DNA of 64,000 nt from Accumulibacter sp. (GCA_031257115.1 JAIRPF010000044.1:9761-73760), one strand, 5' to 3'. Shown: positions 44,219 to 61,158, counted from the stretch's first letter. The notes: a model not told the origin generated them from the sequence alone. Numbers and translations are program-made.

Positions 44219-45367
44219 TTACCGCGTAAGCAGATCGACGTAGGCTTGGTAGCTGTAGCTGCGGTTCTTCTTCTGGCCCGTCACTTCCACCACCACGTCC
44301 AGTTGCTCCAGCACCCGCACCGCCGCATTCGCCGTCGGGAACGTGGTATCCAGTTGCTGCCGCGCGCGCTCCACGGTGAAGCGCGGCATCATTGGCAGCC
44401 GTTCGAACAGCCGATAGGTGGCCGGGCTGGCCTTGGACGATTGCAGCAGCTTCCGGCGGTCGGCGGCAATCAGACTGGCGATGGCGATGATGCCGCGCTC
44501 GGCGTCCGCTGCCGCGACCGCCACCGCTTCCAGAAAGAACGACACCCACGATTCCCAATCGCCCTCGGTGCGGATGACCGAAAGGCGGCGGTAATACTCG
44601 GCCTGATGCTGCTTCAGGTAGCCGCTGAGGTACATCAACGGTTCAACCAGCAAGTTCCAGTGTTCCAGCAACGCTCCAATCAGCAGACGTCCGATGCGTC
44701 CGTTGCCATCCAGAAACGGATGGATGGTTTCAAACTGCGCATGGATCAGCGCGATTTTCACCAAGGGCGGAAGATCGCCTGCTTCCCCGTGGATGAATCG
44801 TTCCAAGCTGGATAGCAGTTCCGGCACACGCTCCGGCGGTGGCGGCACGAACACCGCATTACCCGGTCGCGTGCCGCCAATCCAGTTCTGCGAATGCCGC
44901 GGTTCGCCGGGTTGCTTGCCCGCGCCGCGCGCACCATCGAGCAACAGCCGGTGCGCATCGCACAGCAGGCGACCGCTGATTGGCAGACCTTTCGGGTCGC
45001 GCAGTTGTTCCCGCACCAAGCGGAATGCCCGCAGGTAATTGGTCACCTCGGCCACGTCGTCGGTGTTGCTGACCTTGAAGCCCGCTTCCTCGTCGAACAG
45101 GTCGGTCAGCGTGGCCTGCGTACCCTCGATCTGGGATGTGAGCAGGGCTTCCTTGCGCACGGCGCTGTAGAGCAGCCAGTCCACCGACGGCACCAAGCCG
45201 GATACGCCGGACAGCCGGGCCAGCGCCAGTTCCGCCTGCCGGTTCAGGTCAGTGAACGAGGCCGCCGCCAACGGCGGATCGGCAGGTGGCAGTGGATGCG
45301 GCACGAAAGCCCGCACCGACTCGCCAAGCGTCGTGGAGGTAGCGTAAGTGCCGGTAGCGCGGTTCAT
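44219..45367 (-). CDS. Fic family protein with C-terminal HTH
   Basis: HPFLDGNGRIGR Fic motif; SSQIEGTQ (class III inhibitory motif). Confidence 0.93.
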   Translation of the reverse strand: MNRATGTYATSTTLGESVRAFVPHPLPPADPPLAAASFTDLNRQAELALARLSGVSGLVPSVDWLLYSAVRKEALLTSQIEGTQATLTDLFDEEAGFKVSNTDDVAEVTNYLRAFRLVREQLRDPKGLPISGRLLCDAHRLLLDGARGAGKQPGEPRHSQNWIGGTRPGNAVFVPPPPERVPELLSSLERFIHGEAGDLPPLVKIALIHAQFETIHPFLDGNGRIGRLLIGALLEHWNLLVEPLMYLSGYLKQHQAEYYRRLSVIRTEGDWESWVSFFLEAVAVAAADAERGIIAIASLIAADRRKLLQSSKASPATYRLFERLPMMPRFTVERARQQLDTTFPTANAAVRVLEQLDVVVEVTGQKKNRSYSYQAYVDLLTR

Positions 45368-45444: not shown

Positions 45445-46090
45445 TTATGGTGCCGGCGCGTGAAAGCTGATTTCGCTCATTTCGCGGCGCGCCTCGATTT
45501 GATACCCCATCGCCCGATAACCGCGCTGGCGGTTGGTCAGCGACCGCGGCAGTTGCACTTTCTCGAAATAGACCCGATTGGCAAGCGCCGCGGTCAAGGC
45601 GAGAGGCACGTCACTGGTCAACTTCCCGACCGGTGCGCTGCGCTGTTTCCACGGCGTAGCCAAATCTTCATCGTCGATGAAGGTCATGTCCAGCGGATAA
45701 ACACCGCCCGTCGCGCGCGGAATGGTCGGCTCGATGTCATGGGCGGGCATCGGTTCGATGGATGCGAGAAAGCCCCATTGATCGGGATGCGGCCGCAGGT
45801 CGGTATCGACGAACACGAAAAAGCCGTTCTCGCGGGGCTTGGAGATTTTCCAAGCCCTTGTGGGTGGTGGCGAAACACGGAACCGAACCCGTGTCCCGCA
45901 GCTCGTGTAAATAGTAACGCCTCCGGTTCTTTCGGAACGGTTTGGAGAACTTGGCCGTTTCGCGTCGCCTGCTGGCCGCCATTGAGCGAACGAACCCATC
46001 ACGCGCATCAGCACGTCCCGTCGCGTCAGCGGCATGCAACTCGCTCACGGTGATGAAATTTTCCATCTTCGATCGCTTATGGTCGCCAAT
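45445..46090 (-). pseudogene. remnant of a TOTE-type primase/DEAD helicase gene
   Basis: Fragments KPRENGFFVFVDTDLRPHPDQWGFLAS...DDEDLATPW...LANRVYFEK recognised from that family; the pieces are discontinuous and the helicase part is absent. Confidence 0.55.
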
Positions 46091-46140: not shown

Positions 46141-46344
46141 ATGCCCAAGAACAGTAGCGAAAGCGGAATCCTGACGATCAAGGATGTCGCCGAGTACCTG
46201 AAGGTCACGGAGCGGACGATCTACCGGCTCGCGGCAGCCAAGAAGATCCCCGGCTTCAAAGTTGGCGGGATGTGGCGCTTCAGGCAGGCGGACATCGATG
46301 CTTGGATCGCCGCGCAAGCGAACAACGTGGAGGGAAGGGATTGA
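46141..46344 (+). CDS. excisionase-family (HTH_17) DNA-binding protein
   Basis: LTIKDVAEYLKVTERTIYRL...PGFKVGGMWRF. Confidence 0.85.
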   Translation: MPKNSSESGILTIKDVAEYLKVTERTIYRLAAAKKIPGFKVGGMWRFRQADIDAWIAAQANNVEGRD

Positions 46345-49280
46345 TCTCCGCCTACCACGCCAAATATTATGCCCACGAGCTGACGCGGCGGCACACCGCA
46401 GACGGCGTAGATCGCCTGTCGCAGTCGCTGTTCGACGCCAGCGTCGATCTGAACCCTCACCAGATCGAAGCGGCACTGTTCGCCATTCGGAACCCATTGC
46501 AGGAAGGCGTACTGCTGGCCGATGAAGTCGGCTTGGGCAAGACCATCGAAGCTGCGCTCGTGATCTGCCAGCACTGGGCCGAACGTCGCCGACGTTTGCT
46601 GGTGATCTGCCCCGCGAGCCTGCGAAAGCAGTGGGCACAGGAACTGCACGACAAGTTTGCCGTGCCATCCACCGTGGTGGATGCCGTCTCCCTGCGCAAG
46701 CAATCGGCGGGCGACTTTCTCGCCACCTTGCAGGGGTTGGTCGGCAAGACGGTCATCATCATGTCCTATCAGTTCGCCGCCAAGCTGGAGGCCGAACTGC
46801 GCGCCGTGCCGTGGGACATGGTGGTCATTGACGAAGCGCACAAGCTGCGCAATGCCCACCGCGCCAGCAATCGCACCGGGCAGGCGCTCAAGCGCGCGCT
46901 GGAAGGCCGCAAAAAGCTGCTGCTCACCGCTACGCCGTTGCAGAACTCGCTGATGGAGCTGTACGGCCTTTCCACGCTGATCGACGAACACCTGTTCGGC
47001 GATGAAGCCGCTTTCCGCAAGCAGTTCCTGAACAGCGGCACGGGCATGGACGAACTGCGCGAGCGCATCGCCAGTTTCGCCAAGCGCACCTTGCGGCGCG
47101 ACGTGCTGGAGTACATCAAATACACCGAGCGCAAGGCGCTGACACAACCGTTCAACCCCACTGACGACGAACAGGCGCTCTACGAGCGCATCTCGGCCTT
47201 CCTGCAAAAGGAAGACTCCTATGCCTTGCCCAAACAGCAGCGCCATCTCACCGCGCTGATCCTGCGCAAGCTGCTGGCTTCCAGTTCGCACGCGGTCTCC
47301 GCCACGCTCGTCACCATCCGCGAACGGCTGCAAGGATTGTTGACGGCGGGCAGGACGGAAGACGACGGCACAGAATTGGTCGAGCAGATCATCGCCGAGG
47401 ACGATCTGGAGCAGGACTATCTGGAAGAGGAAGCCAGCGAGGACGAGGCTGCGACCGACGACGGCGCACCCGCGTCCGGCGATGATGGCAAGCCGGATGC
47501 CGCAAGAGCAGCCAACGCCGTCCGCGCCGCCATCGCCGCCGAGATCGAGGAACTGACCGCCTTCATCGAAGCCGCGCAGGCGCTGCAAACCGACACCAAG
47601 GCGCAGGCGCTCTTGAAGGCGCTCTCGCTGGGTTTCGGCAAGATGGCCGAACTGCGCGCCCCGCGCAAAGCCATCATCTTCACGGAGTCCAAGCGCACAC
47701 AGGAATACCTGCATCGCTTCCTCTCCGCCAACGGCTACGCGGGTAAGCTGGCGCTATTCTCCGGTACCAACACGCACGAAGAATCCGCCGCCATCTACCA
47801 ACGCTGGCTGGAGGAATTCAAGGGCACGGATCGCGTCACCGGCTCGCCGCAGGTGGACAGGCGCACCGCGCTGATCGACCACTTCCGCAAGGACGACGGC
47901 ACGGGCGCGGAAATCATGATCGCCACCGAAGCCGCCGCCGAAGGCGTCAACCTTCAGTTCTGCGCGCTCATCATCAACTACGACCTGCCCTGGAACCCGC
48001 AGCGCGTTGAGCAGCGTATTGGCCGCTGCCACCGCTACGGCCAACGCTTCGACGTGGTGGTCATCAACTTCCTCAACACCCGCAATCAGGCCGATCAGCG
48101 CGTGCTGGAGCTGCTCACCAAAAAGTTCAATCTGTTCTCCGGCGTGTTCGGCGCGTCCGACGAAGTGCTGGGCCGCATCGAAGGCGGTCTCGACTTCGAG
48201 AAGCGCGTCCTCCTGATCTACGACACCTGCCGCAAGCCGGAAGACATCGAAGCCGCCTTCAACAAGCTGCAAACGGAACTGGAAGAAGCCATCGCCGACC
48301 GCATCAGGGAAACCCAGACGCAACTGCTGGAGAACTTCGACGAGGACGTTCACGACCGCCTTAAGCTGCGGCTGGACGAGGCCGAAGCCCGCCTCGACAA
48401 GCTGGGCCGCTGGTTCTGGGGCGTCACCCGCTACGCCTTGAGCGAGCGCGCCCGTTTCGACGAGCAGTCCTACGCTTTTTCCCTGAGCGCGCCGCCCGCT
48501 GGTATTGCCTCATTAGCCCCATCTGGCCGCTACCAGCTCATCCGTGGCGCGGCACAGCCGGACATGCTGGCGCACGCCTATCGCCTCAGCCACCCGCTGG
48601 GCGAATGGAGCATTAATGCAAGCCTCGGCGCATCCACGCCCACGGCCACCCTGAAACTGGACTACGGCAAGCACGGCGCGCGCATCTCCGTGGTCGAAAG
48701 ACTGCGGGGAAAAACCGGCTGGCTCACGCTGGCGCGGCTGGAAGTCAGCGCCTTCGAGACTACCGAGGCCTTGCTGTTTTCCGGCCTTACCGACGACGGC
48801 GATCCGCTGGATCAGGAAACCTGCGAAAAACTGATGAGCATTCCGGCGGCGGGCAAGCCCACCGCGCTCAACGCCGCCGTGCCGCCTATGCTGGCCGCCA
48901 ACAGCCAGCGCGCCGTGGCCGCCACCATTGCGCAGGTGCTGGAAGCCAACCAGCGCCTGTTCAATGAGGAGCGCGACAAGCTGGAACGCTGGGCCGACGA
49001 CAAACTGCTGGCCGCCGAAGAAGCCCTGAAGAACACCAAGGCGCGCATTGCCCAGTTGAAGCGCGATGGGCGCGGAGCCGCCACCTTGCAGGAGCAGGAC
49101 GGCATCCAGCGCGAGATCGCGGAACTGGAACGCAAGCAGCGCCGCCTGCGGCAGGAAATCTTCACCGTCGAGGACGAGATCATCGCCAAGCGCGACGAAC
49201 TCATTGCCTCGCTCCAGCAGCGCCTGCAAGAAAAGACATCCACCGATACCCTGTTCAGCATCCGCTGGCGGGTGTCGTGA
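46341..49280 (+). CDS. SNF2-family helicase with C-terminal coiled coil
   Basis: LADEVGLGKT, IDEAH, LTATPLQN, ATEAAAEGVNLQ, YDLPWNPQRVEQRIGR. TTG start overlaps the HTH stop. Confidence 0.92.
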   Translation: MISAYHAKYYAHELTRRHTADGVDRLSQSLFDASVDLNPHQIEAALFAIRNPLQEGVLLADEVGLGKTIEAALVICQHWAERRRRLLVICPASLRKQWAQELHDKFAVPSTVVDAVSLRKQSAGDFLATLQGLVGKTVIIMSYQFAAKLEAELRAVPWDMVVIDEAHKLRNAHRASNRTGQALKRALEGRKKLLLTATPLQNSLMELYGLSTLIDEHLFGDEAAFRKQFLNSGTGMDELRERIASFAKRTLRRDVLEYIKYTERKALTQPFNPTDDEQALYERISAFLQKEDSYALPKQQRHLTALILRKLLASSSHAVSATLVTIRERLQGLLTAGRTEDDGTELVEQIIAEDDLEQDYLEEEASEDEAATDDGAPASGDDGKPDAARAANAVRAAIAAEIEELTAFIEAAQALQTDTKAQALLKALSLGFGKMAELRAPRKAIIFTESKRTQEYLHRFLSANGYAGKLALFSGTNTHEESAAIYQRWLEEFKGTDRVTGSPQVDRRTALIDHFRKDDGTGAEIMIATEAAAEGVNLQFCALIINYDLPWNPQRVEQRIGRCHRYGQRFDVVVINFLNTRNQADQRVLELLTKKFNLFSGVFGASDEVLGRIEGGLDFEKRVLLIYDTCRKPEDIEAAFNKLQTELEEAIADRIRETQTQLLENFDEDVHDRLKLRLDEAEARLDKLGRWFWGVTRYALSERARFDEQSYAFSLSAPPAGIASLAPSGRYQLIRGAAQPDMLAHAYRLSHPLGEWSINASLGASTPTATLKLDYGKHGARISVVERLRGKTGWLTLARLEVSAFETTEALLFSGLTDDGDPLDQETCEKLMSIPAAGKPTALNAAVPPMLAANSQRAVAATIAQVLEANQRLFNEERDKLERWADDKLLAAEEALKNTKARIAQLKRDGRGAATLQEQDGIQREIAELERKQRRLRQEIFTVEDEIIAKRDELIASLQQRLQEKTSTDTLFSIRWRVS

Positions 49281-49315
49281 ACCCTGAATCACAAGATCAA
49301 AGAAATGAGTCCGCC

Positions 49316-52300
49316 ATGACCAACAAGCACAACCCAAAATTTCAGGAGCTCGTCGCCAAGCTGCGCGAAATTTTCCAGATCGACCGCCCGGAACTCGACT
49401 TCGGCATCTACCGCATCCTCAACGCCCGCGCTGGTGAGATCAACGGCTATCTGGAAAACCGGCTGGCGGAAAAGGTGCGAGCCGCGCTATCAGCGGGCAA
49501 CGCCGCCAGCGCCACGGCTTTGCAGGCCGAATTGCAGGAAGCCGAAAAGAACGCGCGGGCGCTCGGCGTCAGCCCCGATGCCGTGCCCAAGGCGCAGGAA
49601 TTGCGCGCCAGGCTGAAAGACGCCACCCAAGGCGCAAACGAACACGAAAACGCCGTGTTCTCGCACCTGCTCACCTTCTTCTCTCGCTACTACGAGCAAG
49701 GCGACTTCATCAGCCAGCGCCGCTACAAGGGCGACACCTACGCCATCCCCTACGCGGGCGAGGAGGTGATGCTGCACTGGGCCAACAAGGATCAGTACTA
49801 CACCAAGAGCGGCGAGAACTTCAGCAATTACAGCTTCAAGCTGGAAGACGGGCGCACCGTGCATTTCCGCCTCGTGGCAGCGGATACCGCCAAGGACAAC
49901 CGCAAGGACAACGACAAGGAACGCCGTTTCGCGCTGGTCGAGAAGAAGACCGTCACCCGTATCGACGAACAGGGCGACGAGCACGGGGAAGACATCCTGC
50001 CGGTGGAGGAAGTGAACGGCGCGGACGGCCGCAAGGCGCTGATCGTCCGCTTCGACTACGCCGCCCAGCCCAAAGGCACCAAGCAGGAGGCGCTGGTGAC
50101 GAAGGCAGTGGATGCCGTGCTGGCGGATGCAGCGGTCAAGGCGCGCTGGCTGGCCTTGGGCAACCTCGCACCCACGGAAAAGAATCCGCAGCGCACCCTG
50201 CTGGAAAAGCACCTGACCGACTACACCGCCAAGAACACGGCGGACTACTTCATCCACAAGGACTTGGGCGGCTTCCTGCGCCGCGAGCTGGACTTCTACA
50301 TCAAGAACGAAGTGATGCACCTGGACGATGTGCAGAACGCGGGCGCGTTCGCGGACATCGAGAAGAACCTGCGGATGATCCAGTGCCTGCGCGCGATTGC
50401 GCTGGATCTGATCGCCTTTCTCGCGCAGTTGGAGGATTTCCAGAAAAAGCTGTGGCTGAAGAAGAAGTTCGTGGTCTCCAGCCACTACTGCATCACGCTG
50501 GATCGCGTGCCGGAGGCGCTATGGCCGGAGATCGTGGCGAACGACCGGCAATGGGCGCAGTGGCAGCAGCTTGGATTGAGAGAAGTTTCGAAATCCGGTG
50601 AGATCGACGACCTTAAGCAGAACCCATACCTTCTGATAGACACGTCCCTTTATTCAGATTCGTTTGGAAGGCGCCTTCTCAGTGCGTTGGAAAACTTGGA
50701 TGTCACGTCGAATGGACTGTTGATTCACGGTGACAACTTTCAAGGGCTTAGGTTACTTGCCGAAAAAGCGCGGGGACGGATTCAGTCTGTTTACATTGAT
50801 CCGCCGTACAACACAAACGCCTCTGCGATTGCTTATAAAAACGGCTTCAAAGATTCCTCTTGGTTGTCGCTGATGGAAAGCAGGCTTTCCGCGGTACGCC
50901 CGATGTTGACCCCCAAGTCCGTGGTCTGCATCGCTATAGATGACGTGGAAGCGGCAAATCTTAAGTTGTCTGTTTCCAGACTGTTCCATGCTGTCCTCGG
51001 GGTTGCGGCTGTCAGAAGTAATCCGTCTGGCCGATCCACTCCAAAGGGGTTTGCCGAAGCGCATGAATACGCGATTTTTGCCGCTGCTGGAGAGGATGCC
51101 TCTGTGGGCAGGTTGCCTAGAAACGAGAAGCAGCTGGCGCGCTACTCAGAGACTGATGATCGCGGGCACTTTGAGTGGGTCAACTTCCGGAAGCACGGCG
51201 GAATAGAAGCCACGAGGCGAGCGCGACCGCGCATGTACTACCCGATCTATGCTTCCTCTGAAAAAGTTCGCCTTCCACAATTAGAATGGAACGAACAGGC
51301 GAATGCTTGGAACGTGCTTGAGAAGCCGCGCCAAGGCGAGCAGGTAATCTGGCCCCATAGCGAATCCGGCGATGAACTTCGGTGGAAGTGGGGAAAGGAT
51401 TCTTTCCTGGATGAAATCGAGCATTTCAAGGCACGGCCCGATCAGGCCGGAAAAATGGGAATCTACATGAAGTCACGGATGAGCGCTGACGGAATGCTGC
51501 CCGTGACTTGGTGGGATAACAAGGAATACTCGGCTACCGAGTATGGAACGAATCTTTTGACGAAGATGTTCGGGCGCATTGCGGATTTTTCGTTCCCTAA
51601 AGCGGTTCAGCTAGTGATGGACTGTTTGCGTGCGACGAATATGAGTTCTAAAGACACAGTCATCGACTTCTTCGCCGGATCTGGAACAACTGCTCACGCC
51701 GTGATTGATATGAACCGGAAGGACGGAGGGAGCCGGAAATACATCCTGATCGAACAAGGTGAGTACTTCAACAACGTGACCAAGCCGCGTGTCCTGAAAT
51801 CTGCATTCAGTCCGGAATGGAGAGACGGCAAGCCCGCGAAACCTAATACACTAGGTGCATCCCACTGCTTCAAAGTCCTCAAACTCGAAAGCTACGAAGA
51901 CACCCTGAACAACCTGCGCCTGAACCGCACATCCGCGCAGGGCGAACTGCTGTCCACCTTGCCGCAGCAAGCCCGGGACGACTACCTGCTGCACTATATG
52001 CTGGACGTGGAAAGCCGTGGCTCGCTGCTGTCGGTGGCGGATTTCAAGAAGCCCTTCGACTACACCCTGAACGTGGCCGTGGATTCAGCGGGCGCGTTCG
52101 AGCCGCGCAAGATTGATCTGGTGGAAACCTTCAACTACCTGATTGGCCTGCGCGTCAAGCACATCGACGCCCAGCCGGAGCGCGGCTTCGTCACCGTCAC
52201 CGGCACCCTGCCCAGCGGTGAAACCTGCCTCGTCCTCTGGCGCGACTGCGATGTGCTGGACTACGAAGGTATCAGCAATCTGTGCGACAAGCTCGCCATC

Positions 52301-52465
52301 AACCCGGCGGACAACGAGTTCGACGTGGTTTATCTCAACGGCGACCATAACATCCCGACCGTGCTCACCCAGACCGCCGAGGAAGGCGGAGCCACCCGCG
52401 TGTTCAAGCTGCGCCAGATTGAACCCGAATTCCTCGACCGTATGTTCAATGTGGAGGACATCTGA
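49316..52465 (+). CDS. mod: type III R-M Mod-like adenine DNA methyltransferase (long form)
   Basis: ELDFGIYRI N-terminus, YIDPPYN (motif IV) before DFFAGSGTT (motif I), i.e. beta class. Confidence 0.9.
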   Translation: MTNKHNPKFQELVAKLREIFQIDRPELDFGIYRILNARAGEINGYLENRLAEKVRAALSAGNAASATALQAELQEAEKNARALGVSPDAVPKAQELRARLKDATQGANEHENAVFSHLLTFFSRYYEQGDFISQRRYKGDTYAIPYAGEEVMLHWANKDQYYTKSGENFSNYSFKLEDGRTVHFRLVAADTAKDNRKDNDKERRFALVEKKTVTRIDEQGDEHGEDILPVEEVNGADGRKALIVRFDYAAQPKGTKQEALVTKAVDAVLADAAVKARWLALGNLAPTEKNPQRTLLEKHLTDYTAKNTADYFIHKDLGGFLRRELDFYIKNEVMHLDDVQNAGAFADIEKNLRMIQCLRAIALDLIAFLAQLEDFQKKLWLKKKFVVSSHYCITLDRVPEALWPEIVANDRQWAQWQQLGLREVSKSGEIDDLKQNPYLLIDTSLYSDSFGRRLLSALENLDVTSNGLLIHGDNFQGLRLLAEKARGRIQSVYIDPPYNTNASAIAYKNGFKDSSWLSLMESRLSAVRPMLTPKSVVCIAIDDVEAANLKLSVSRLFHAVLGVAAVRSNPSGRSTPKGFAEAHEYAIFAAAGEDASVGRLPRNEKQLARYSETDDRGHFEWVNFRKHGGIEATRRARPRMYYPIYASSEKVRLPQLEWNEQANAWNVLEKPRQGEQVIWPHSESGDELRWKWGKDSFLDEIEHFKARPDQAGKMGIYMKSRMSADGMLPVTWWDNKEYSATEYGTNLLTKMFGRIADFSFPKAVQLVMDCLRATNMSSKDTVIDFFAGSGTTAHAVIDMNRKDGGSRKYILIEQGEYFNNVTKPRVLKSAFSPEWRDGKPAKPNTLGASHCFKVLKLESYEDTLNNLRLNRTSAQGELLSTLPQQARDDYLLHYMLDVESRGSLLSVADFKKPFDYTLNVAVDSAGAFEPRKIDLVETFNYLIGLRVKHIDAQPERGFVTVTGTLPSGETCLVLWRDCDVLDYEGISNLCDKLAINPADNEFDVVYLNGDHNIPTVLTQTAEEGGATRVFKLRQIEPEFLDRMFNVEDI

Positions 52466-53595
52466 TGAACGCTCATCACAAACCACATCACCTGCAAGGG
52501 CGAATCACGGAAGTCTCCATCGAGGGTTTCCGCAGCCTGAAACGCATCGAAAAATTGCAGCTTCCGCAGTTGACGGTGCTGATCGGCGCGAACGGCGTGG
52601 GAAAATCCAGCTTCATCCGCTTCTTTGAAATGCTGGGCTGGATGCTTCGCGCCCGGAACCTGCAAGATTTCGTCGTCCGCAAGGGTGGTGGCGATGATCA
52701 GTTTTTCATGGGATCTCGCACCACGCCGCAGATCAAGGCCGAATTGCGGATCGCCACCGACAAGGGATTCAACGACTACCAGTTCGAGATGGCGCATCTG
52801 TCGGCGGGCGATACGGTGATGTTGACGCACGAGGCGTATCGGTATTCCGACGCCAGCAAATCCGGGCAGGCCAAGTGGAGCAATTTGTCGGGTGTTGGCA
52901 AAGAGTCGTCACTGCCGGATCAGGACAACAAGACGGCCAAGACCATCTACATCTTGCTCCGGCAATGTTCGACCTATCAGTTCCACGACACGTCCGCCAA
53001 CGCCTCGTTGCACCAGCGTTGGGACGTTTCCGACTTTGCGCGCCTGCGTTCGGATGGCGGCAATCTTGCTGCCGTGCTGCTCGATCTGCGCGAGAACGAT
53101 TTACCACGCTATCGACAGTTGGTGCGCCAGATTCAGCGCGTGTTCCCCACGCTGGAGGATTTCATTCTGGAGCCGGTGGCAGGCAAGGTACTGCTGCGCT
53201 GGAAGAGCAAATACAGCGACAAGGTGTTCGGCGCGCATCTGACTTCCGATGGTTCCTTGCGCCTGTTCTGTCTGCTGACGCTCCTCAGCCTGCCGGACGA
53301 ACGCCTGCCGGACATGCTGTTTTTCGACGAACCCGAACTGGGCCTGCACCCGCACGCTATCACACTGGTGTCGGAAATGCTCAAGCGCGTCGCCAAGACG
53401 CGACAGGTCTTCATCGCCACGCAGTCGCCCTACATGGTGGATTGCTTCGACTTGGAGAACATCATTGTCGCCGAAACCACAAATGGCGCGACCACGTTGC
53501 GGAATCTGCCGAAGGAGCAGTATCAGCAGTGGCTCGATGACGACTACCTGTTGTCGGATATCTGGTTGAAGACGCCGGCCGGGGTGTCTGCATGA
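52465..53595 (+). CDS. ABC-type (AAA_21-like) ATPase
   Basis: GANGVGKS Walker A, TSDGSLR signature, FFDEPELGLHP Walker B/D-loop, ATQSP. No TM segments. TGATG coupling to mod. Confidence 0.88.
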   Translation: MNAHHKPHHLQGRITEVSIEGFRSLKRIEKLQLPQLTVLIGANGVGKSSFIRFFEMLGWMLRARNLQDFVVRKGGGDDQFFMGSRTTPQIKAELRIATDKGFNDYQFEMAHLSAGDTVMLTHEAYRYSDASKSGQAKWSNLSGVGKESSLPDQDNKTAKTIYILLRQCSTYQFHDTSANASLHQRWDVSDFARLRSDGGNLAAVLLDLRENDLPRYRQLVRQIQRVFPTLEDFILEPVAGKVLLRWKSKYSDKVFGAHLTSDGSLRLFCLLTLLSLPDERLPDMLFFDEPELGLHPHAITLVSEMLKRVAKTRQVFIATQSPYMVDCFDLENIIVAETTNGATTLRNLPKEQYQQWLDDDYLLSDIWLKTPAGVSA

Positions 53596-54239
53596 TCCGC
53601 GTCTGCATCGTCTGCGAGGGCGCGACCGAAGCCGAATTCGTCAAGACTTGCCTCACGCCGCATCTGCTGAACCACAACGTCAATGCGTATCCCGAGATCC
53701 TTCAAGCGCCATCGGGACGGCATCGCGGCGGGCGCGTCACAGTCGAAAGACTGGCGCGATTCATCTCGCACGAATACCACGACACGGACCGCTTGACGAC
53801 ACTGGTGGATTTCTACGGCTTTCAGGATGCGGATGGACGCACACGGCAAGAACTGGAGACGGCCATTGCCGATGAAGTTGCGAAGCTCACCACCGGATTC
53901 GATCCACGCTTCGTGCGGCCGTATGTGCAGATGCACGAGTTCGAGGGATTGCTGTTCTCGGATGTCGAGCAGTTCCAATACGTTCTGGACGGTTGGGACG
54001 CGAATGTCCGACAGAAGCTGACGGATATTCGCGCGCAATTCCAGACGCCGGAAGACATCAACAACCACCGCGAAAGCGCGCCGTCCAAGCGGATACTTGC
54101 GACCTTCCCGAATGGAACCTACAACAAGACCGAGCACGGCCCAGTGATTGCGGAATCCATCGGGCTACCCGTGATTCGTCAGCAGTGCCCGCAGTTCAAC
54201 GACTGGTTGAGTATGCTGGAAACATGGGGGGCATCCTGA
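53592..54239 (+). CDS. DUF4276-like protein (TOPRIM-like acidic motifs)
   Basis: IVCEGATEAEF, TTLVDFYG, YVQMHEFEGLLFSD, PEDINN...PSKRI, YNKTEHG, CPQFNDWL. Confidence 0.75.
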   Translation: MIRVCIVCEGATEAEFVKTCLTPHLLNHNVNAYPEILQAPSGRHRGGRVTVERLARFISHEYHDTDRLTTLVDFYGFQDADGRTRQELETAIADEVAKLTTGFDPRFVRPYVQMHEFEGLLFSDVEQFQYVLDGWDANVRQKLTDIRAQFQTPEDINNHRESAPSKRILATFPNGTYNKTEHGPVIAESIGLPVIRQQCPQFNDWLSMLETWGAS

Positions 54240-57200
54240 TGGCACCCCCCCAAAAAACCATTAAGCGCAGCTTTCATCAGGAACTGGTGCTCAACCGCTG
54301 GGTGCTGGGCTTCTTCCACGGCGGCACGCTGGCGGCGCTCAAGATGCGCCTGGGCGATGACCGCTTCGAGGGCATCGACGAGGACGGCCAGACCAAATTC
54401 TTCCACGAGCTGGTGCGCGGCCTGTTCGACCCCAACCGCGTGCCGGAGGCCGACCTGCGCCGCTACGACCTGAACGTGGTGGCGCACTGGCAGGCCATCA
54501 CCGCCCAGCGCAACAAGCAGGAAGGCCATGAGTTGCAGATGAAGTACTTCCAGTACCTCTCGCTGCTGCTCACCGAGCTGTATCTGGACTGGTATTTCAA
54601 CCACCGCCAAGACCTGCTGGACGGCCTGAACGAGGAGATGACGCGCTACCGCGCCGAGAACGGCGCGGAGCCGTTCCGCGACTTCGAGGCGGACGACCTG
54701 AACAAGATCGCCTTCTGGAACGCCACCGGCAGCGGCAAGACCCTGCTGCTGCACGTCAACATCCGCCAGTACCTGCACTACTTTCAGGCGGGACGCGGCG
54801 ATCACTACCCCAGCAAGATCATCCTGCTTACGCCCAACGAAGGCTTGAGCCGTCAGCATCTGGAGGAGCTGCACCTGTCCGGCTTCGGCTTCGCGCAGTT
54901 CTTCAACAAGACGCAGACCCCACCGCGCGGCACCATCGAAATCATCGACATCAACAAGCTGGGCGATGAGATGGGCGACAAGACCGTTGCCGTGGACGCC
55001 CTCGAGGGCAACAACCTCGTGCTGGTGGACGAAGGCCATCGCGGCACCGGCACGGCGGCGGGCGCGTGGATGGCGCGGCGCGACGCGCTGGTGCGCGGTG
55101 GCTTCGCCTTCGAATATTCGGCTACTTTCGGGCAGGCGGTGGCCAAGGGCATGACGGTGGCGCAGGCCGAAGAGGACATCCAGAAAAAGTGCGCCAAGAG
55201 GCTGTTCAACACCACCAGTCTGCGCAGTCTGGACGACGGGCAGAAGGCGCAATTGGCGCTGACGGCGGAGGACAAGCGCCGCGCGCGCATCATCGCCACC
55301 CGCGAGATTTACGCCAAGTGCATCCTGTTCGACTATTCCTACAAGTTCTTCTACGAGGACGGCCACGGCAAGGAATCGCTGATCCTCAACATGAACGGCG
55401 AAGCCTACGAAACGGACGACAACGCCACCAAATACTTCACCGCCTGCCTGCTGGCCTTCTACCAGCAGCTTTGGCTGTGGAGCACGCACCGATCGGCGCT
55501 TGCCGATTTCAACATCGAAAAGCCGCTGTGGGTGTTCGTGGGCAACACGGTGTCGGGCGAGGAATCGGACATTCTGGAAGTGGTGAACTTCCTCGCCGCG
55601 TTCTTGGACAACGACGCGCAGATCAAGACCTGGCTGGCCGCCCTGATTGCCGACCGCGCGCAGATTCTGGATGCCAAGGGCAACAACATCTTCTGCGGAC
55701 GCTTCAAGCCCTTGATGGGCTTCTCCGGCAAGGAGGATGAACTCTACGCGGATATTCTGCTGCGCGTGTTCAATGCACCGGCCAAGCAACGGCTGAAACT
55801 GGTCAACATCAAGAGCAGCAAGGGAGAACTTGCGCTGCGCGTGGGCGATGCGGAACCCTTCGGCCTCATCAACATCGGCGACGACGCGGGCTTCTACGGC
55901 ATGGCCGAGAATGTGAAAGCCTTTGACAGCGAGCGCGACGATTTCGGCGGTGCGCTGTTCGGCACGCTGAACAACAAGGACAGCCGCCTCAACGTGCTGA
56001 TTGGTTCGCGCAAGTTCACCGAGGGCTGGAGCAGTTGGCGCGTCTCGACGATGGGCCTGCTCAACATGGGGCAAGGCGAAGGTTCGCAGATCATCCAGTT
56101 GTTCGGACGCGGTGTGCGCCTGAAGGGCAAGGGCTTCTCGCTCAAGCGCGCCTTGCCGCAGGACAGGCCCAAGGGCACGCATCTGGACAAGCTGGAGGCG
56201 CTGAACATCTTTGGCGTACGCGCCAGCTACATGGCCGCGTTCAAGGATTATCTGCGCGAGGAAGGCATCACGCCCAGCGACGAGATTCTGGAACTGGACT
56301 TTCCGACGCGCGCCAACCTGCCCACGGACAAGCTCAGGACGCTGGCGCTCAAAGACGGCTACAAGGACAACCAGAAGCTCGGTTTCAAGCGCGCCCACTT
56401 CCCGTGGCTGTATGAGATTCCGGCGCAGTTTCAGGGCAAGATCAAAGCCCCGCATGTGGTGCTCGACCTGTATCCGCGCGTCGAGGCGCTGTCCAGCAAG
56501 GATAAGGGCGCAGCACCCACGACGGAAGCGCGCAACAAAGGCAAGCTGAATCAGACGCTGTTCTCGGTTTTCAATTGGGATCGCGTCTATCTGGCCTTGC
56601 AGGACTACAAGTTGCTGCGCAGCTGGAGCAACCTGCGGTTGGAACGGCAGAAGCTGATCGACTTCTGCGCGGGCGCGCAGGATTGGTACACGCTGTTCAT
56701 TCCGGCGGCGGAGCTGAACGTGACGACCTTCGCCGATATCCGCAAGCAGGAGGACATCCTGATCCGCCTGCTGACCGACTACACCGACCGCTTCTACAAA
56801 GCCTTGAAGACCGGCTACGAAGGCCAGTTCTACGGCATCATCCACATGGATGAAGATCATGGCTCGATGCTCAAGCTGTACCAGTTCGAGATCGAGAACA
56901 GCGACGACGGGCTGGAATATCAGGCCAAACTGGAAGTGCTGAAAAAACTGGTGGCCGAAGGCAAGATCGGCGAAGCCAGCCAGTGGAACGCGCCACACAT
57001 GGTGGCCATCAGCTTCGACCGGCACTTGTACTACCCGCTGCTGGCATTGGAGGACAAGGATGCCGTGCCGCTGAAGCTGCGCCCGCTAGCCTTCGATGCG
57101 CCGAGTGAATGGGAGTTTGTCCGCGATTTGGAGGCGTTCTACAACTCTGAGGATGGCAAGGAAGCCATTGGCCATCGCAGCCTGTACCTGCTGCGCAACG

Positions 57201-57583
57201 CGGATCGGGAGGAAAAGGGCTTGGGCTTCGCGCTGGCGGGCAACTTCTACCCAGACTTCCTGTTGTGGTTGGTGGACGACGCCAGCGGCAAGCAGTGGCT
57301 GACTTTCGTCGATCCGAAGGGGCTGCGCAATCTCGACCTAACACACCCTAAGCTGGGCCTCTATAAGGAAGTGAAAATCTTGGAGACGACGCTGGCGGGT
57401 CAGGCCAAGGCGGGCGAACCGCCGTTGGTGTTGAATGCCTTCGTACTGTCGCCGACGAAGTTTGCCGACCTGCTCAACGTGGGCGATCTCACGAAGAAGG
57501 CCGATCTGGAAAGTCGCCATGTGCTGTTCATGGAGGACGGTGGGAACGCCTACTTGAAGAAGCTGTTTGCCGTATTGATTTGA
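54239..57583 (+). CDS. res: type III R-M Res-like helicase-endonuclease
   Basis: NATGSGKT, VDEGHR, YSATF, KFTEGW, QLFGRGVRL, C-terminal FYPDFLLW...FVDPKG (PD-(D/E)XK). Confidence 0.9.
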   Translation: MAPPQKTIKRSFHQELVLNRWVLGFFHGGTLAALKMRLGDDRFEGIDEDGQTKFFHELVRGLFDPNRVPEADLRRYDLNVVAHWQAITAQRNKQEGHELQMKYFQYLSLLLTELYLDWYFNHRQDLLDGLNEEMTRYRAENGAEPFRDFEADDLNKIAFWNATGSGKTLLLHVNIRQYLHYFQAGRGDHYPSKIILLTPNEGLSRQHLEELHLSGFGFAQFFNKTQTPPRGTIEIIDINKLGDEMGDKTVAVDALEGNNLVLVDEGHRGTGTAAGAWMARRDALVRGGFAFEYSATFGQAVAKGMTVAQAEEDIQKKCAKRLFNTTSLRSLDDGQKAQLALTAEDKRRARIIATREIYAKCILFDYSYKFFYEDGHGKESLILNMNGEAYETDDNATKYFTACLLAFYQQLWLWSTHRSALADFNIEKPLWVFVGNTVSGEESDILEVVNFLAAFLDNDAQIKTWLAALIADRAQILDAKGNNIFCGRFKPLMGFSGKEDELYADILLRVFNAPAKQRLKLVNIKSSKGELALRVGDAEPFGLINIGDDAGFYGMAENVKAFDSERDDFGGALFGTLNNKDSRLNVLIGSRKFTEGWSSWRVSTMGLLNMGQGEGSQIIQLFGRGVRLKGKGFSLKRALPQDRPKGTHLDKLEALNIFGVRASYMAAFKDYLREEGITPSDEILELDFPTRANLPTDKLRTLALKDGYKDNQKLGFKRAHFPWLYEIPAQFQGKIKAPHVVLDLYPRVEALSSKDKGAAPTTEARNKGKLNQTLFSVFNWDRVYLALQDYKLLRSWSNLRLERQKLIDFCAGAQDWYTLFIPAAELNVTTFADIRKQEDILIRLLTDYTDRFYKALKTGYEGQFYGIIHMDEDHGSMLKLYQFEIENSDDGLEYQAKLEVLKKLVAEGKIGEASQWNAPHMVAISFDRHLYYPLLALEDKDAVPLKLRPLAFDAPSEWEFVRDLEAFYNSEDGKEAIGHRSLYLLRNADREEKGLGFALAGNFYPDFLLWLVDDASGKQWLTFVDPKGLRNLDLTHPKLGLYKEVKILETTLAGQAKAGEPPLVLNAFVLSPTKFADLLNVGDLTKKADLESRHVLFMEDGGNAYLKKLFAVLI

Positions 57584-57829: not shown

Positions 57830-58371
57830 GGCTTAAACAGTTTTCTTGAAATCTGCTTGAGCATGAACTACCACAAGAAAGGCTTGAAGAAGCTCCTGCC
57901 GGCGATTCTGGACAATGACGTGGGCAGGTTGGTACTCACGCACAAGGACAGGTTGCTGCGCTTTGGCGCGGAACTGGTTTTCGGCATCTGCGAGGCGAAA
58001 CAAGTCGAGGCAGTCATCCTCAACCAGGGTAAGGACACGAGACAAGGCGGCGATGCGCGGCGGCATGGTCGTGGCGGCGGACAGGTTCTTCGCAAGCTCC
58101 AAGACCTGCTCTTGCTGCGGGCACAAGCTGGAAGGATTACCGCTTTCGGTACGGGAATGGACATGCCCACAATGCGGCGCGCATCATGACCGTGACGCAA
58201 ATGCCGCGATCAATTTGAAAAATTACGCCGTGAGTTCCACGGTGTCAGTCTGTGGAGAGGAAGACGCTGGCCCCTGTCGCAAGACAAGAGCGAAACCATC
58301 CTCGGCGAAGCAGGAAACCAACAATAGACTTACTCAGTTATGAGTAGATTTGTGTAAGTTTGGTAGAATGG
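57830..58371 (+). mobile_element. internally deleted IS607-family element (TnpA and TnpB fragments)
   Basis: TnpA piece MNYHKKGLKKLL...HKDRLLRFGAELVF; TnpB C-terminus ADRFFASSKTCSCCG...WTCPQCGAHHDRDANAAINL; GG at both apparent ends. Confidence 0.75.
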
Positions 58372-58937: not shown

Positions 58938-59249
58938 ATGCCCAAAATGGCTTCGTTCGTAGTAATGCGCGCTCTGAAGCGGTTGGGGGGCGATCTGAAG
59001 GACGCTCGCCGCCGCCGTCGCATCAAGACCGCCCTGATGGCCGAGCGCGTGGGCGTGACGCGCGCGACCCTGGATCGCATGGAGAAAGGATCGCCGAGCG
59101 TGGGAATGGGCATCTATGCCACGGCGATCTACAGTCTCGACCCTGACAAGCTCGAAGCCCTGGCGACGATTTTCGGCAACGACACGCTGGGACAGGCCAT
59201 TTCCGATCGTGAATTGCCGAAACGCATTCGCGGAAGATCGGCGCTGTGA
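58938..59249 (+). CDS. XRE-family HTH antitoxin (HipB-like)
   Basis: LKDARRRRR...MAERVGVTRATLDRMEKGSPSVGMG; GTGA overlap with hipA. Confidence 0.8.
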   Translation: MPKMASFVVMRALKRLGGDLKDARRRRRIKTALMAERVGVTRATLDRMEKGSPSVGMGIYATAIYSLDPDKLEALATIFGNDTLGQAISDRELPKRIRGRSAL

Positions 59250-59743
59250 AGCTCATCGTCACGATGGATTGGCCTCCGTGCCCCGGCAAGGTCGGGGAAC
59301 TGGAAGTGTTCAGTTCGCGCGGCGCGGAAACGTACCAATTCACTTACACCAAGGAATGGACGAAAAACGGATTTCAGATCGATCCCGCGTTGCCGCTGGT
59401 TCCTGGCCTGAAGCAACACAGCCAGAAACTTCCCGGCGCTTTCGAGGATATTTCACCGGATCGCTGGGGCCGGATGGTGCAAAAGCGCGCCCGTGGGGGA
59501 TACATGAGCGATGCCGATTTCATGGTCGGCGTCAGCGACATGATGCGCATGGGGGCGCTACGACTGGCGCGCGCCGAGTCTCCGGACACGTTCATCGCCG
59601 CCAACACCGACGTTCCAAAGCTGGTCGATTTGCGAGAACTGGAAGCGGCTTGCCTTCGCATCGAAAAAGGGCAGGAAACGGACAGTGATCTGCGCCAATT
59701 GCTGGGGCCGGGATCGTCCCTGGGCGGCGCGCATCCCAAAGCC
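59246..59743 (+). pseudogene. hipA: HipA-family kinase toxin, C-terminally truncated
   Basis: HipA N-terminal coupling region, DISPDRWGR, RMGALRL; breaks right after SSLGGAHPKA. Confidence 0.8.
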
Positions 59744-59906
59744 GGGGTGCCTGGAATCTTGCCCATCTTCGGATACGCGGACAGTTTTGCCGCCGCATCG
59801 CTGAAAAGCGCATCCAGACGGGTAGCCGCGCCTGGATTGTCAGCCGCGATGTAGTCCAAATGTCGGCACGGTCTTGTTCCGCCTCCGGCGTCCAGACAAC
59901 AATCAT
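59744..59906 (-). pseudogene. RelE/ParE toxin, frameshifted and truncated
   Basis: MIVVWTPEAEQDRADIW, then a 1-nt shift to DYIAADNPGAATRLDALF...MGKIPGT, ending at the hipA junction. Confidence 0.75.
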
Positions 59907-60184: not shown

Positions 60185-60400
60185 GGCGTACATCCTTGCG
60201 ACAAGATACTTGCATTGTCTATACACATTATCAGTATTTGGCAAGCCGTTTCCCCATTCCGATCATCGGTCGTGGCAAGACGTGTATCATGCGCCTTGCC
60301 CGAACGGGAAAATGGCCTGGGCAGGCATCCCGAATCGTTGAGCGAGATGATGAACGAGGCAGTCGCCTGATTTTCCGGTTTCGCTCGATTGGATCATTCA

Positions 60401-60631
60401 ATGACACGCACCATTGGCCGCCGCAAGGAGCGCCGCATCACCTTCTCCGCCTCCGCCGAACTCCTGGCCGAGGGGGCGCGGTTCAATGATGAATTACACC
60501 GGCTGCCCACCGGCAATCGGACTTTCATCCCCAAGGGGGTCATCCGCTTCAAAAGCCACGAAGAGATGAATCGCTACGATCTGGAATGCTTGGCATTGGG
60601 CATGGCTCGCGTCGCCCTGGAGCGCTCCTGA
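60401..60631 (+). CDS. small hypothetical protein coupled to the nucleotidyltransferase
   Basis: 76 aa ...KGVIRFKSHEEMNRY...; TGATG overlap with the next gene. Confidence 0.6.
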   Translation: MTRTIGRRKERRITFSASAELLAEGARFNDELHRLPTGNRTFIPKGVIRFKSHEEMNRYDLECLALGMARVALERS

Positions 60632-61158
60632 TGGAAGAATACAGCCGTCCGGCCACTTTCGAAGACCTCAAGACCCTGATCCTGGCCCTGGATGGGCAAG
60701 GTGCCGACTATCTTCTGATTGGCGGTTACGCCTTGTTTGCTCATGGTTATCATCGGGCCACCGTCGATATCGACGTGCTTGTGCCCGCTACCCGGTCGTC
60801 CGGCGAAAAGGTGCGCAACGCCATGATGATATTGCCCGATCGGGCGGCCAAGGACCTCGATCCCGCCTGGTTCGAGGAAGGCGACAACATCCGCGTGGCG
60901 GACGCTTTCGTGGTGGACATCATGCTCAACGCCTGTGGCGAAACTTTCGAGACCCTGAAACAGTACGCCGAAACCGTGGAATTGGATGGCGTTCCCATCC
61001 GCACCGTCAATCTGGAGGGTTTGTTGTTGACCAAGCGAACCATGCGCGACAAGGATGTGGCCGACCGAATCGTCCTGGAGCGGGCGCTGGAGACGCTCCG
61101 GCGGCAACAGGCCAGGAAAACGGAATCTGATACGACATTCAAGCCAGCAACTCATTAG
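60631..61158 (+). CDS. nucleotidyltransferase-fold protein (DUF6036/AbiEii-like)
   Basis: LIGGYAL..HG..RATVDIDVLV (GG...DxD), VDIM, LLLTK...RDKDVAD. Confidence 0.75.
   Translation: MEEYSRPATFEDLKTLILALDGQGADYLLIGGYALFAHGYHRATVDIDVLVPATRSSGEKVRNAMMILPDRAAKDLDPAWFEEGDNIRVADAFVVDIMLNACGETFETLKQYAETVELDGVPIRTVNLEGLLLTKRTMRDKDVADRIVLERALETLRRQQARKTESDTTFKPATH

Follow-up and report, generated by a model that had tools for sequence, protein, structure and literature searches.

Organization of the operon

The window analysed here is a stretch of 64,000 nucleotides (nt) from Accumulibacter sp. (GCA_031257115.1 JAIRPF010000044.1:9761-73760), and all positions below are counted from its first letter. 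Between 46141 and 57583 it contains six co-oriented plus-strand open reading frames (ORFs) without internal stops, an intact multi-gene operon with a predicted function in anti-phage defence. The first gene (46141..46344, +, 67 amino acids, aa) encodes a small helix-turn-helix (HTH) protein of the HTH_17/excisionase type, recognised by Pfam and NCBIfam models. It is followed by a SNF2-family ATPase resembling RapA and DrmD (46341..49280, +, 979 aa; Pfam, PADLOC), by Mod, a long beta-class N6-adenine methyltransferase (49316..52465, +, 1049 aa; PADLOC MTase_III), by a soluble ABC-type ATPase of the HEC-01A family (52465..53595, +, 376 aa; PADLOC, Pfam AAA_21), by a DUF4276 Toprim-like predicted nuclease of the HEC-01B family (53592..54239, +, 215 aa; Pfam, PADLOC) and, finally, by a Res-like protein combining a superfamily 2 (SF2) DExH ATPase with a PD-(D/E)xK domain (54224..57583, +, 1119 aa; PADLOC REase_III).

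The genes are tightly packed. The HTH and SNF2 genes overlap in TTGA, Mod and the ABC ATPase in TGATG, and the ABC ATPase and DUF4276 genes in the 4 nt ATGA, while the overlap of DUF4276 and Res is 1 or 16 nt, according to which start is used. Two genes have alternative starts, GTG 49277 for Mod and ATG 54239 for Res, and the starts on record in public annotation are ATG 49316 and ATG 54224, respectively. Because these recorded starts leave a gap only between SNF2 and mod (35 nt, with Mod starting at ATG 49316), the initial annotation, which had described six intact co-oriented genes with overlapping stop and start codons at four of the five junctions, was right on both counts. The same spacing between SNF2 and mod is annotated on the Aeromonas media plasmid pE31A, which is discussed below. 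A scan of the operon region for promoters and terminators returned matches no more frequent than expected by chance.

Mod and Res

Mod matches the PADLOC model MTase_III (PDLC03646) over its full length with 1155 bits, and its motif order, DPPY (VYIDPPYNT) before FAGSGTT, is that of the beta class. Searching PDB sequences with phmmer retrieved EcoP15I Mod (4zcf_A, E 1.9e-15), Mbo45V (7dsu, E 4e-30) and the Mod of 6k0w, and the catalytic region is clearly homologous to solved type III Mods, that of EcoP15I included. Among close relatives Mod is 80-95% identical over most of residues 101-400 (70-89% in the bin 201-300) and 62-94% identical at 841-1062, with only 20-60% identity at 401-840. Such central variability is expected for a specificity determinant, as in classical type III enzymes; the variable centre holds catalytic motifs too, besides the recognition region. 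When proteins are clustered at 90% identity, the Mod cluster has 1 member and the Res cluster 666, a disparity that fits what rapid specificity change on a conserved scaffold would produce.

Res matches the PADLOC model REase_III (PDLC03654) over its full length (1608 bits) and the Pfam family ResIII with 28 bits, above the cut-off. Its ATPase motifs read ATGSGKT, DEGH and QLFGRGVR, and GSGKT, DEGH and QxxGRGxR are invariant in an alignment of 35 homologues, as are the C-terminal residues P1005-D1006...D1025-P1026-K1027. The AlphaFold2 model of Res (pLDDT 82) has an alpha-beta-beta-beta-alpha-beta arrangement at 955-1071, which fits a PD-(D/E)xK nuclease.

Here, we compared Mod and Res with the classical type III systems EcoP1I and EcoP15I, which have the composition Mod2Res. 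In both cases a beta-class Mod is encoded before res in one operon, and Res likewise has an SF2 DExH ATPase at its N-terminus and a PD-(D/E)xK domain at its C-terminus. The differences lie in a conserved third gene, SNF2, in inter-gene junctions that serve as slots for defence genes, in a Mod that exceeds the classical ones by about 400 aa and has additional conserved domains at both ends, and in a Res whose sequence homology to the EcoP1I and EcoP15I subunits was not detected. Neither phmmer nor a profile search of Res against PDB chains gave a match, and hhalign of the Res alignment against EcoP1I Res returned a probability of 1.4%, with the DExH region alone aligned. We also considered Res as a structural sibling of EcoP15I Res, and this candidate failed: a Foldseek search with the Res model placed generic SF2 helicases at the top (RIG-I/MDA5, XPB, HsdR), with the Res of 4zcf not among them. 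Since Res resembles EcoP1I Res in architecture only, we call the locus type III-like rather than a canonical member of the type, a label that rests on the predicted architecture, the homology of Mod and the REBASE-derived PADLOC model. The conserved third gene also upholds the distinction from the two-gene EcoP1I and EcoP15I systems that had been drawn at first.

The SNF2 gene and its association with Mod and Res

The second gene of the operon matches the Pfam families SNF2-rel_dom and Helicase_C, and 21 homologues all share its motifs GLGKT, DEAH, TATP and QRIGRxHRxGQ without change; the catalytic motifs reported in the initial annotation were present wherever they were checked, and invariant in the family alignments. 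Beyond the helicase core, the protein has a long coiled coil and, at its C-terminus, a beta domain that is conserved. Among known folds it matches RapA best, with about 1040 aligned columns versus about 590 for eukaryotic remodellers, values obtained with a modest model (pLDDT 70).

The association of this gene with mod and res was evaluated by a Mod search using one genome per species, which gave at least 587 confirmed relatives, and the best 80 loci were examined, SNF2 being called by tBLASTn and an SNF2 profile; 78 of these loci were informative and 2 uninformative. A cognate SNF2 lies beside Mod and Res in 67 loci, to which 2 degraded copies can be added (about 69/78, or about 88%). The usual order is SNF2-Mod-Res, and in Pasteurellaceae and Neisseria it is Mod-Res-SNF2. 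When 400 genomes of the same phylum, sampled without bias, were searched for the Res family, 6 were found to have it, 4 of these with the cognate SNF2 adjacent. Both surveys agree with the earlier proposal that SNF2 is a dedicated partner of mod and res. Moreover, SNF2, Mod and Res co-vary in how identical they are to the copies in the window (Spearman 0.78-0.89, n=56 loci), as would be expected of a unit that is inherited and transferred together.

Members of this trio family occur in several phyla and on plasmids. The order of all six genes recurs in Thauera (L007), Aeromonas (L008) and Comamonas (L041), and an identical six-gene array is located on pE31A between IS4 elements. A four-gene HTH-SNF2-Mod-Res version is carried by conjugative IncF plasmids of Klebsiella and E. 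coli. The names that PGAP assigns to the plasmid copies are generic only, and our search of the open literature, with REBASE and most subscription journals beyond its reach, turned up neither a name for the SNF2-Mod-Res trio nor a study of it. The E. coli plasmid pEC316_2 (L082) and about 188 other plasmid records were also noted to contain Res matches, most of them 80-90% identical, with only 25 records covering at least 80% of Res; many plasmids of Enterobacteriaceae thus seem to carry truncated remnants of the trio system, often beside IS26.

We evaluated whether SNF2 could instead be a separate single-gene defence system or a housekeeping helicase, a mere neighbour uncoupled from Mod and Res. 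SNF2 helicases do act in many unrelated defence systems, and 8 of 78 loci are without SNF2; in one genome the cognate SNF2 downstream of Res (G215:C12:319185-322028) has two in-frame stops (TAG, TAA) beside a Res that is still open, so that SNF2 can decay while Res persists. However, adjacency is kept in two gene orders and in several phyla, SNF2 co-diverges with Res (rho 0.81), the C-terminal domain of SNF2 is conserved within the family and, in the window, its start overlaps the stop of the HTH gene with 35 nt left before mod. Taking both sides together, we regard an uncoupled SNF2 as quite unlikely.

The best PADLOC and NCBIfam matches of SNF2 are DrmD models, and in DISARM class 1, as here, such a gene adjoins an adenine methyltransferase gene, so that the locus could be read as a reduced or variant DISARM in which SNF2 is DrmD and Mod replaces DrmMI. 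The similarity is limited to the helicase core, though: the PADLOC DrmD model PDLC02619 gives 636 bits over that core only, NF038318 (DrmD_b) gives 634 bits versus a cut-off of 950 and NF038317 gives 288 versus 610, and the DrmD_b match, which spans model positions 22-655 of 868, ends before the C-terminal part of SNF2. In place of DrmMI there is a type III Mod (PF01555), the operon is without DrmA, DrmB and DrmC, and DrmB/DUF1998 (PF09369) had no match in the whole genome, while control genomes gave matches. Neither Mod nor Res matches a DISARM model; comparing the DISARM models with all six proteins returned nothing besides DrmD and a weak similarity to the DrmA helicase. A variant DISARM is for these reasons very improbable, in line with the initial annotation, which had set the locus apart from DISARM.

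Other settings in which SNF2 proteins act were compared as well. The Hma/DUF499 BREX-related (BR) systems share with this locus an SNF2 helicase and an N6-methyltransferase, and both host embedded defence genes; in our locus, unlike Hma, the methyltransferase is of a different class and a dedicated Res helicase-nuclease is present. That family is defined by the DUF499 AAA+ ATPase HmaC (PMC12839542), and we rejected it as a candidate since the six proteins contain no DUF499/HmaC match and their similarity to HmaA reaches only 186 bits. The SNF2 contexts of ARMADA, ietHAS and Zorya are unrelated by their published descriptions.

The HTH gene and the ABC ATPase/DUF4276 pair

The HTH protein matches Pfam HTH_17 with 70.7 bits and NCBIfam MADS1, a short model, with 85.4 bits versus a cut-off of 80. 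It is probably the transcriptional regulator of the operon. In 11 of 64 loci, and also in pE31A, SNF2 is immediately preceded by an HTH_17-type homologue, so this gene is an optional accessory.

Concerning the pair of genes between mod and res, the ABC ATPase has a Walker A motif (GANGVGKS), a signature (LSDGS) and a Walker B motif (FFDEPE), and it matches the PADLOC model HEC-01A (PDLC04175) with 393 bits over positions 5-356 of 363; it gives 81 bits with the PADLOC model mad3. The second protein matches Pfam DUF4276 (163 bits) and PADLOC HEC-01B (PDLC04188; 220 bits, positions 12-226 of 230), and its conserved acidic and motif residues are E9, E13, D73 and HEFE115-118. DUF4276 has been assigned to the Toprim superfamily, Mad4 being described as a homologue (PMC12065111). 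HEC-01, an ABC ATPase with a Toprim protein, was defined by Payne et al. (bioRxiv 10.1101/2024.01.29.577857) as a candidate embedded in Hma, in a study reporting defence genes embedded in Hma, BREX, DISARM and type I systems. The two adjacent genes in the window have the same ATPase-then-Toprim order and are embedded in a methylation-based system, as in Hma and MADS, the difference being that their host is the SNF2-Mod-Res trio and not Hma/DUF499 or MADS. The closest characterised analogue of the pair is MAD3-MAD4 of MADS, whose 2:2 heterotetramer of ATPase and Toprim subunits binds DNA and cleaves it (PMC13662399), an analogy in which the similarity to MAD3 is weak (NCBIfam MADS3, 106 bits versus a cut-off of 420) and the MAD4 model is unmatched.

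This analogy raises the possibility that the locus belongs to MADS, as a whole system or as a fragment. The HTH protein passes the MADS1 cut-off, the ATPase has the weak MADS3 match and DUF4276 belongs to the fold family of Mad4. In the published MacSyFinder model of MADS, however, MAD6, MAD7 and MAD8 are mandatory, and they are missing here, since the operon stops at 57583 and is followed by gene fragments only; the MADS3 score is far from its cut-off, and Mod, Res and DUF4276 match no MADS model. We consider a MADS assignment extremely unlikely.

The distribution of the pair differs from that of the trio. No more than 7 of the 80 loci have it between mod and res, and in the 400-genome sample HEC-01B occurs in 35 other genomes, in 34 of which the Res family was not found; in the remaining one it is a decayed fragment beside Res. 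Being rare in trio loci and common without Res, the pair appears to be an independent module that was inserted here and became translationally coupled. In the other loci the mod-res and SNF2-mod gaps are a few bases long or are filled with unrelated genes: a YhcG/DUF1016 nuclease (7 loci), RhuM (5), a ParE-type toxin-antitoxin, NOV_C, AAA_15 with PIN, other ABC ATPases, GmrSD, a NERD-helicase, Fic, Abi_2, HigB with HTH-M78 and a sigma factor. This filling of slots matches the embedding pattern of bioRxiv 10.1101/2024.01.29.577857. In a genome of the same phylum (G070:C190:13389-17109), two fragments of a DUF4276 gene lie directly upstream of a Res homologue with no cognate SNF2, a locus that resembles the cargo-bearing form in a state of decay.

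It could still be argued that the six genes constitute one integrated machine in which the ABC/Toprim pair is a required nuclease or sensor, as mad3 and mad4 are in MADS. All cargo junctions are translationally coupled, the six-gene order recurs in Thauera, Aeromonas, Comamonas and pE31A, and MADS itself contains an HTH-MTase-ATPase-Toprim order and needs mad3/mad4 for defence. In addition, SNF2 is missing more often where HEC-01 is present (3/7 HEC-01-bearing loci versus 5/71 others; Fisher p=0.02), so that the pair could substitute for it; the three pair-bearing loci in question (L001, L011, L031) are without SNF2 within about 10 kb. Against integration, 73 of 80 loci lack the pair, many of them with mod and res directly abutting, and elsewhere the mod-res slot holds unrelated genes. 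HEC-01B is about six times commoner than the Res family, with which it almost never co-occurs, and when six-gene copies are compared with each other, the pair reaches 58-70% identity, as against 83-93% for Res. We therefore judge an integrated six-component machine unlikely. The initial annotation had proposed a single bespoke system of this kind, a claim at odds with the occurrence of the pair both in few trio loci and mostly in genomes without Res, and with the optional status of the HTH gene.

A probable composite defence locus

The reading that we favour, and that we hold to be probable, is that the locus is a composite, made of the SNF2-Mod-Res trio as a core, the HTH protein as its regulator and an independent cargo of HEC-01 type. 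The PADLOC models cover Mod, Res and HEC-01A/B each over the full length, and a run of the PADLOC/DefenseFinder type would probably return 'RM type III + HEC-01' (RM, restriction-modification) plus an orphan DrmD-like gene.

Following this composite reading, Mod would methylate the DNA of the host, its variable central module determining the site, and Res, with its SF2 ATPase and PD-(D/E)xK domains, would act with Mod to cut unmethylated incoming DNA using ATP. Our best guess for SNF2 is a DNA-translocating or protein-clearing subunit that would aid the reach of Mod and Res, or their communication, along the target DNA, its candidate roles being directed translocation, displacement of DNA-bound proteins and site-to-site communication. 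The small HTH protein would control transcription and set expression. By analogy with MAD3-MAD4, the ABC/Toprim pair may assemble into a heterotetramer able to bind DNA and to nick or cleave it, and would probably be a second-line effector nuclease, possibly triggered when the restriction-modification core is blocked.

Several points weigh against the composite reading. SNF2 is absent from the 8 of 78 loci mentioned above, all with adequate flanks, and may be dispensable. Res is, in the comparisons made, without detectable sequence or profile similarity to EcoP1I and EcoP15I Res beyond the SF2 motifs. The only published assay of HEC-01, carried out in E. coli with the cassette alone, saw no protection (bioRxiv 10.1101/2024.01.29.577857), and the association of HEC-01 with the absence of SNF2 is a hint from few loci that the pair is more than cargo; mad3 and mad4 are essential to MADS, so that the word cargo could be wrong here. 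It should also be said that we infer restriction, methylation and any role of SNF2, as we do the composition of the complexes and the part played by the cargo; what the sequences show directly is the gene content and its intactness, the synteny, the co-divergence and that the HTH and cargo genes are optional.

A bolder version of the composite reading is possible, although doubtful. The trio could represent a distinct and widespread class of ATP-dependent restriction systems, in which SNF2 would be an obligatory third subunit altering site finding or communication, the conserved extra domains at the termini of Mod would provide the docking surface, the mod-res junction would be a dedicated docking slot, and the cargo in it would fire when anti-restriction proteins of phages block the core.

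Genomic neighbourhood

The operon lies in a small defence island, at about 44-61 kb, which contains several gene fragments and is not uniformly decayed. Upstream are the cobalamin genes cbiD/C/X, two oxidoreductases, a SoFic gene and a PrimPol/AEP fragment. SoFic (44219-45367, -; PADLOC 361 bits) is a full-length Fic-domain gene and an intact single-gene defence system. The AEP/PrimPol ORF (45445-46035, -, 196 aa) matches the models in their C-terminal part only and seems to be what remains of a primase from an older mobile element. Downstream of the operon, the ORF at 57915-58343 (+, 142 aa) is a truncated TnpB of IS200/IS605 type, a TnpB/Cas12f-like C-terminus with the TNB/zinc-ribbon domain only. 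It is followed, at 58938-59854 (+), by a HipB-like HTH gene and a truncated HipA (59246-59854, 202 aa) of which the N-terminal coupling domain alone is left; a second ORF, 59116-59688, overlaps it in a different frame and points to a frameshift in hipA. Finally, at 60389-61158 (+), an 80-aa ORF overlaps a gene for a 190-aa nucleotidyltransferase with weak similarity to DUF6036/AbiEii; this pair has no PADLOC match and looks intact. Beyond it are gmd/fcl and a glycosyltransferase.

The description of the surroundings as a decayed island, in which almost every neighbouring gene would be broken, was thus overstated: it holds for the AEP/PrimPol, TnpB and HipA fragments, but SoFic and the pair at 60389-61158 look intact. 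Concerning the limits of the island, a repeat scan found no bounding repeats, a tRNA scan found no tRNA gene nearby, and no integrase was found.

Implications

The window contributes the HEC-01-carrying, six-gene form of the trio, and with it the pattern of defence genes embedded in defence systems extends to a type III-like host. The locus also offers a natural context for HEC-01, a cassette that was inactive when tested alone. The copies carried by IncF plasmids may shape the traffic of plasmids and phages in clinically relevant hosts. If SNF2 proves to be a true subunit, the trio would add a variant with three motor proteins to the classes of restriction enzymes, and it would provide a simple bacterial setting in which the action of an SNF2 remodeller on naked or protein-coated DNA could be followed.

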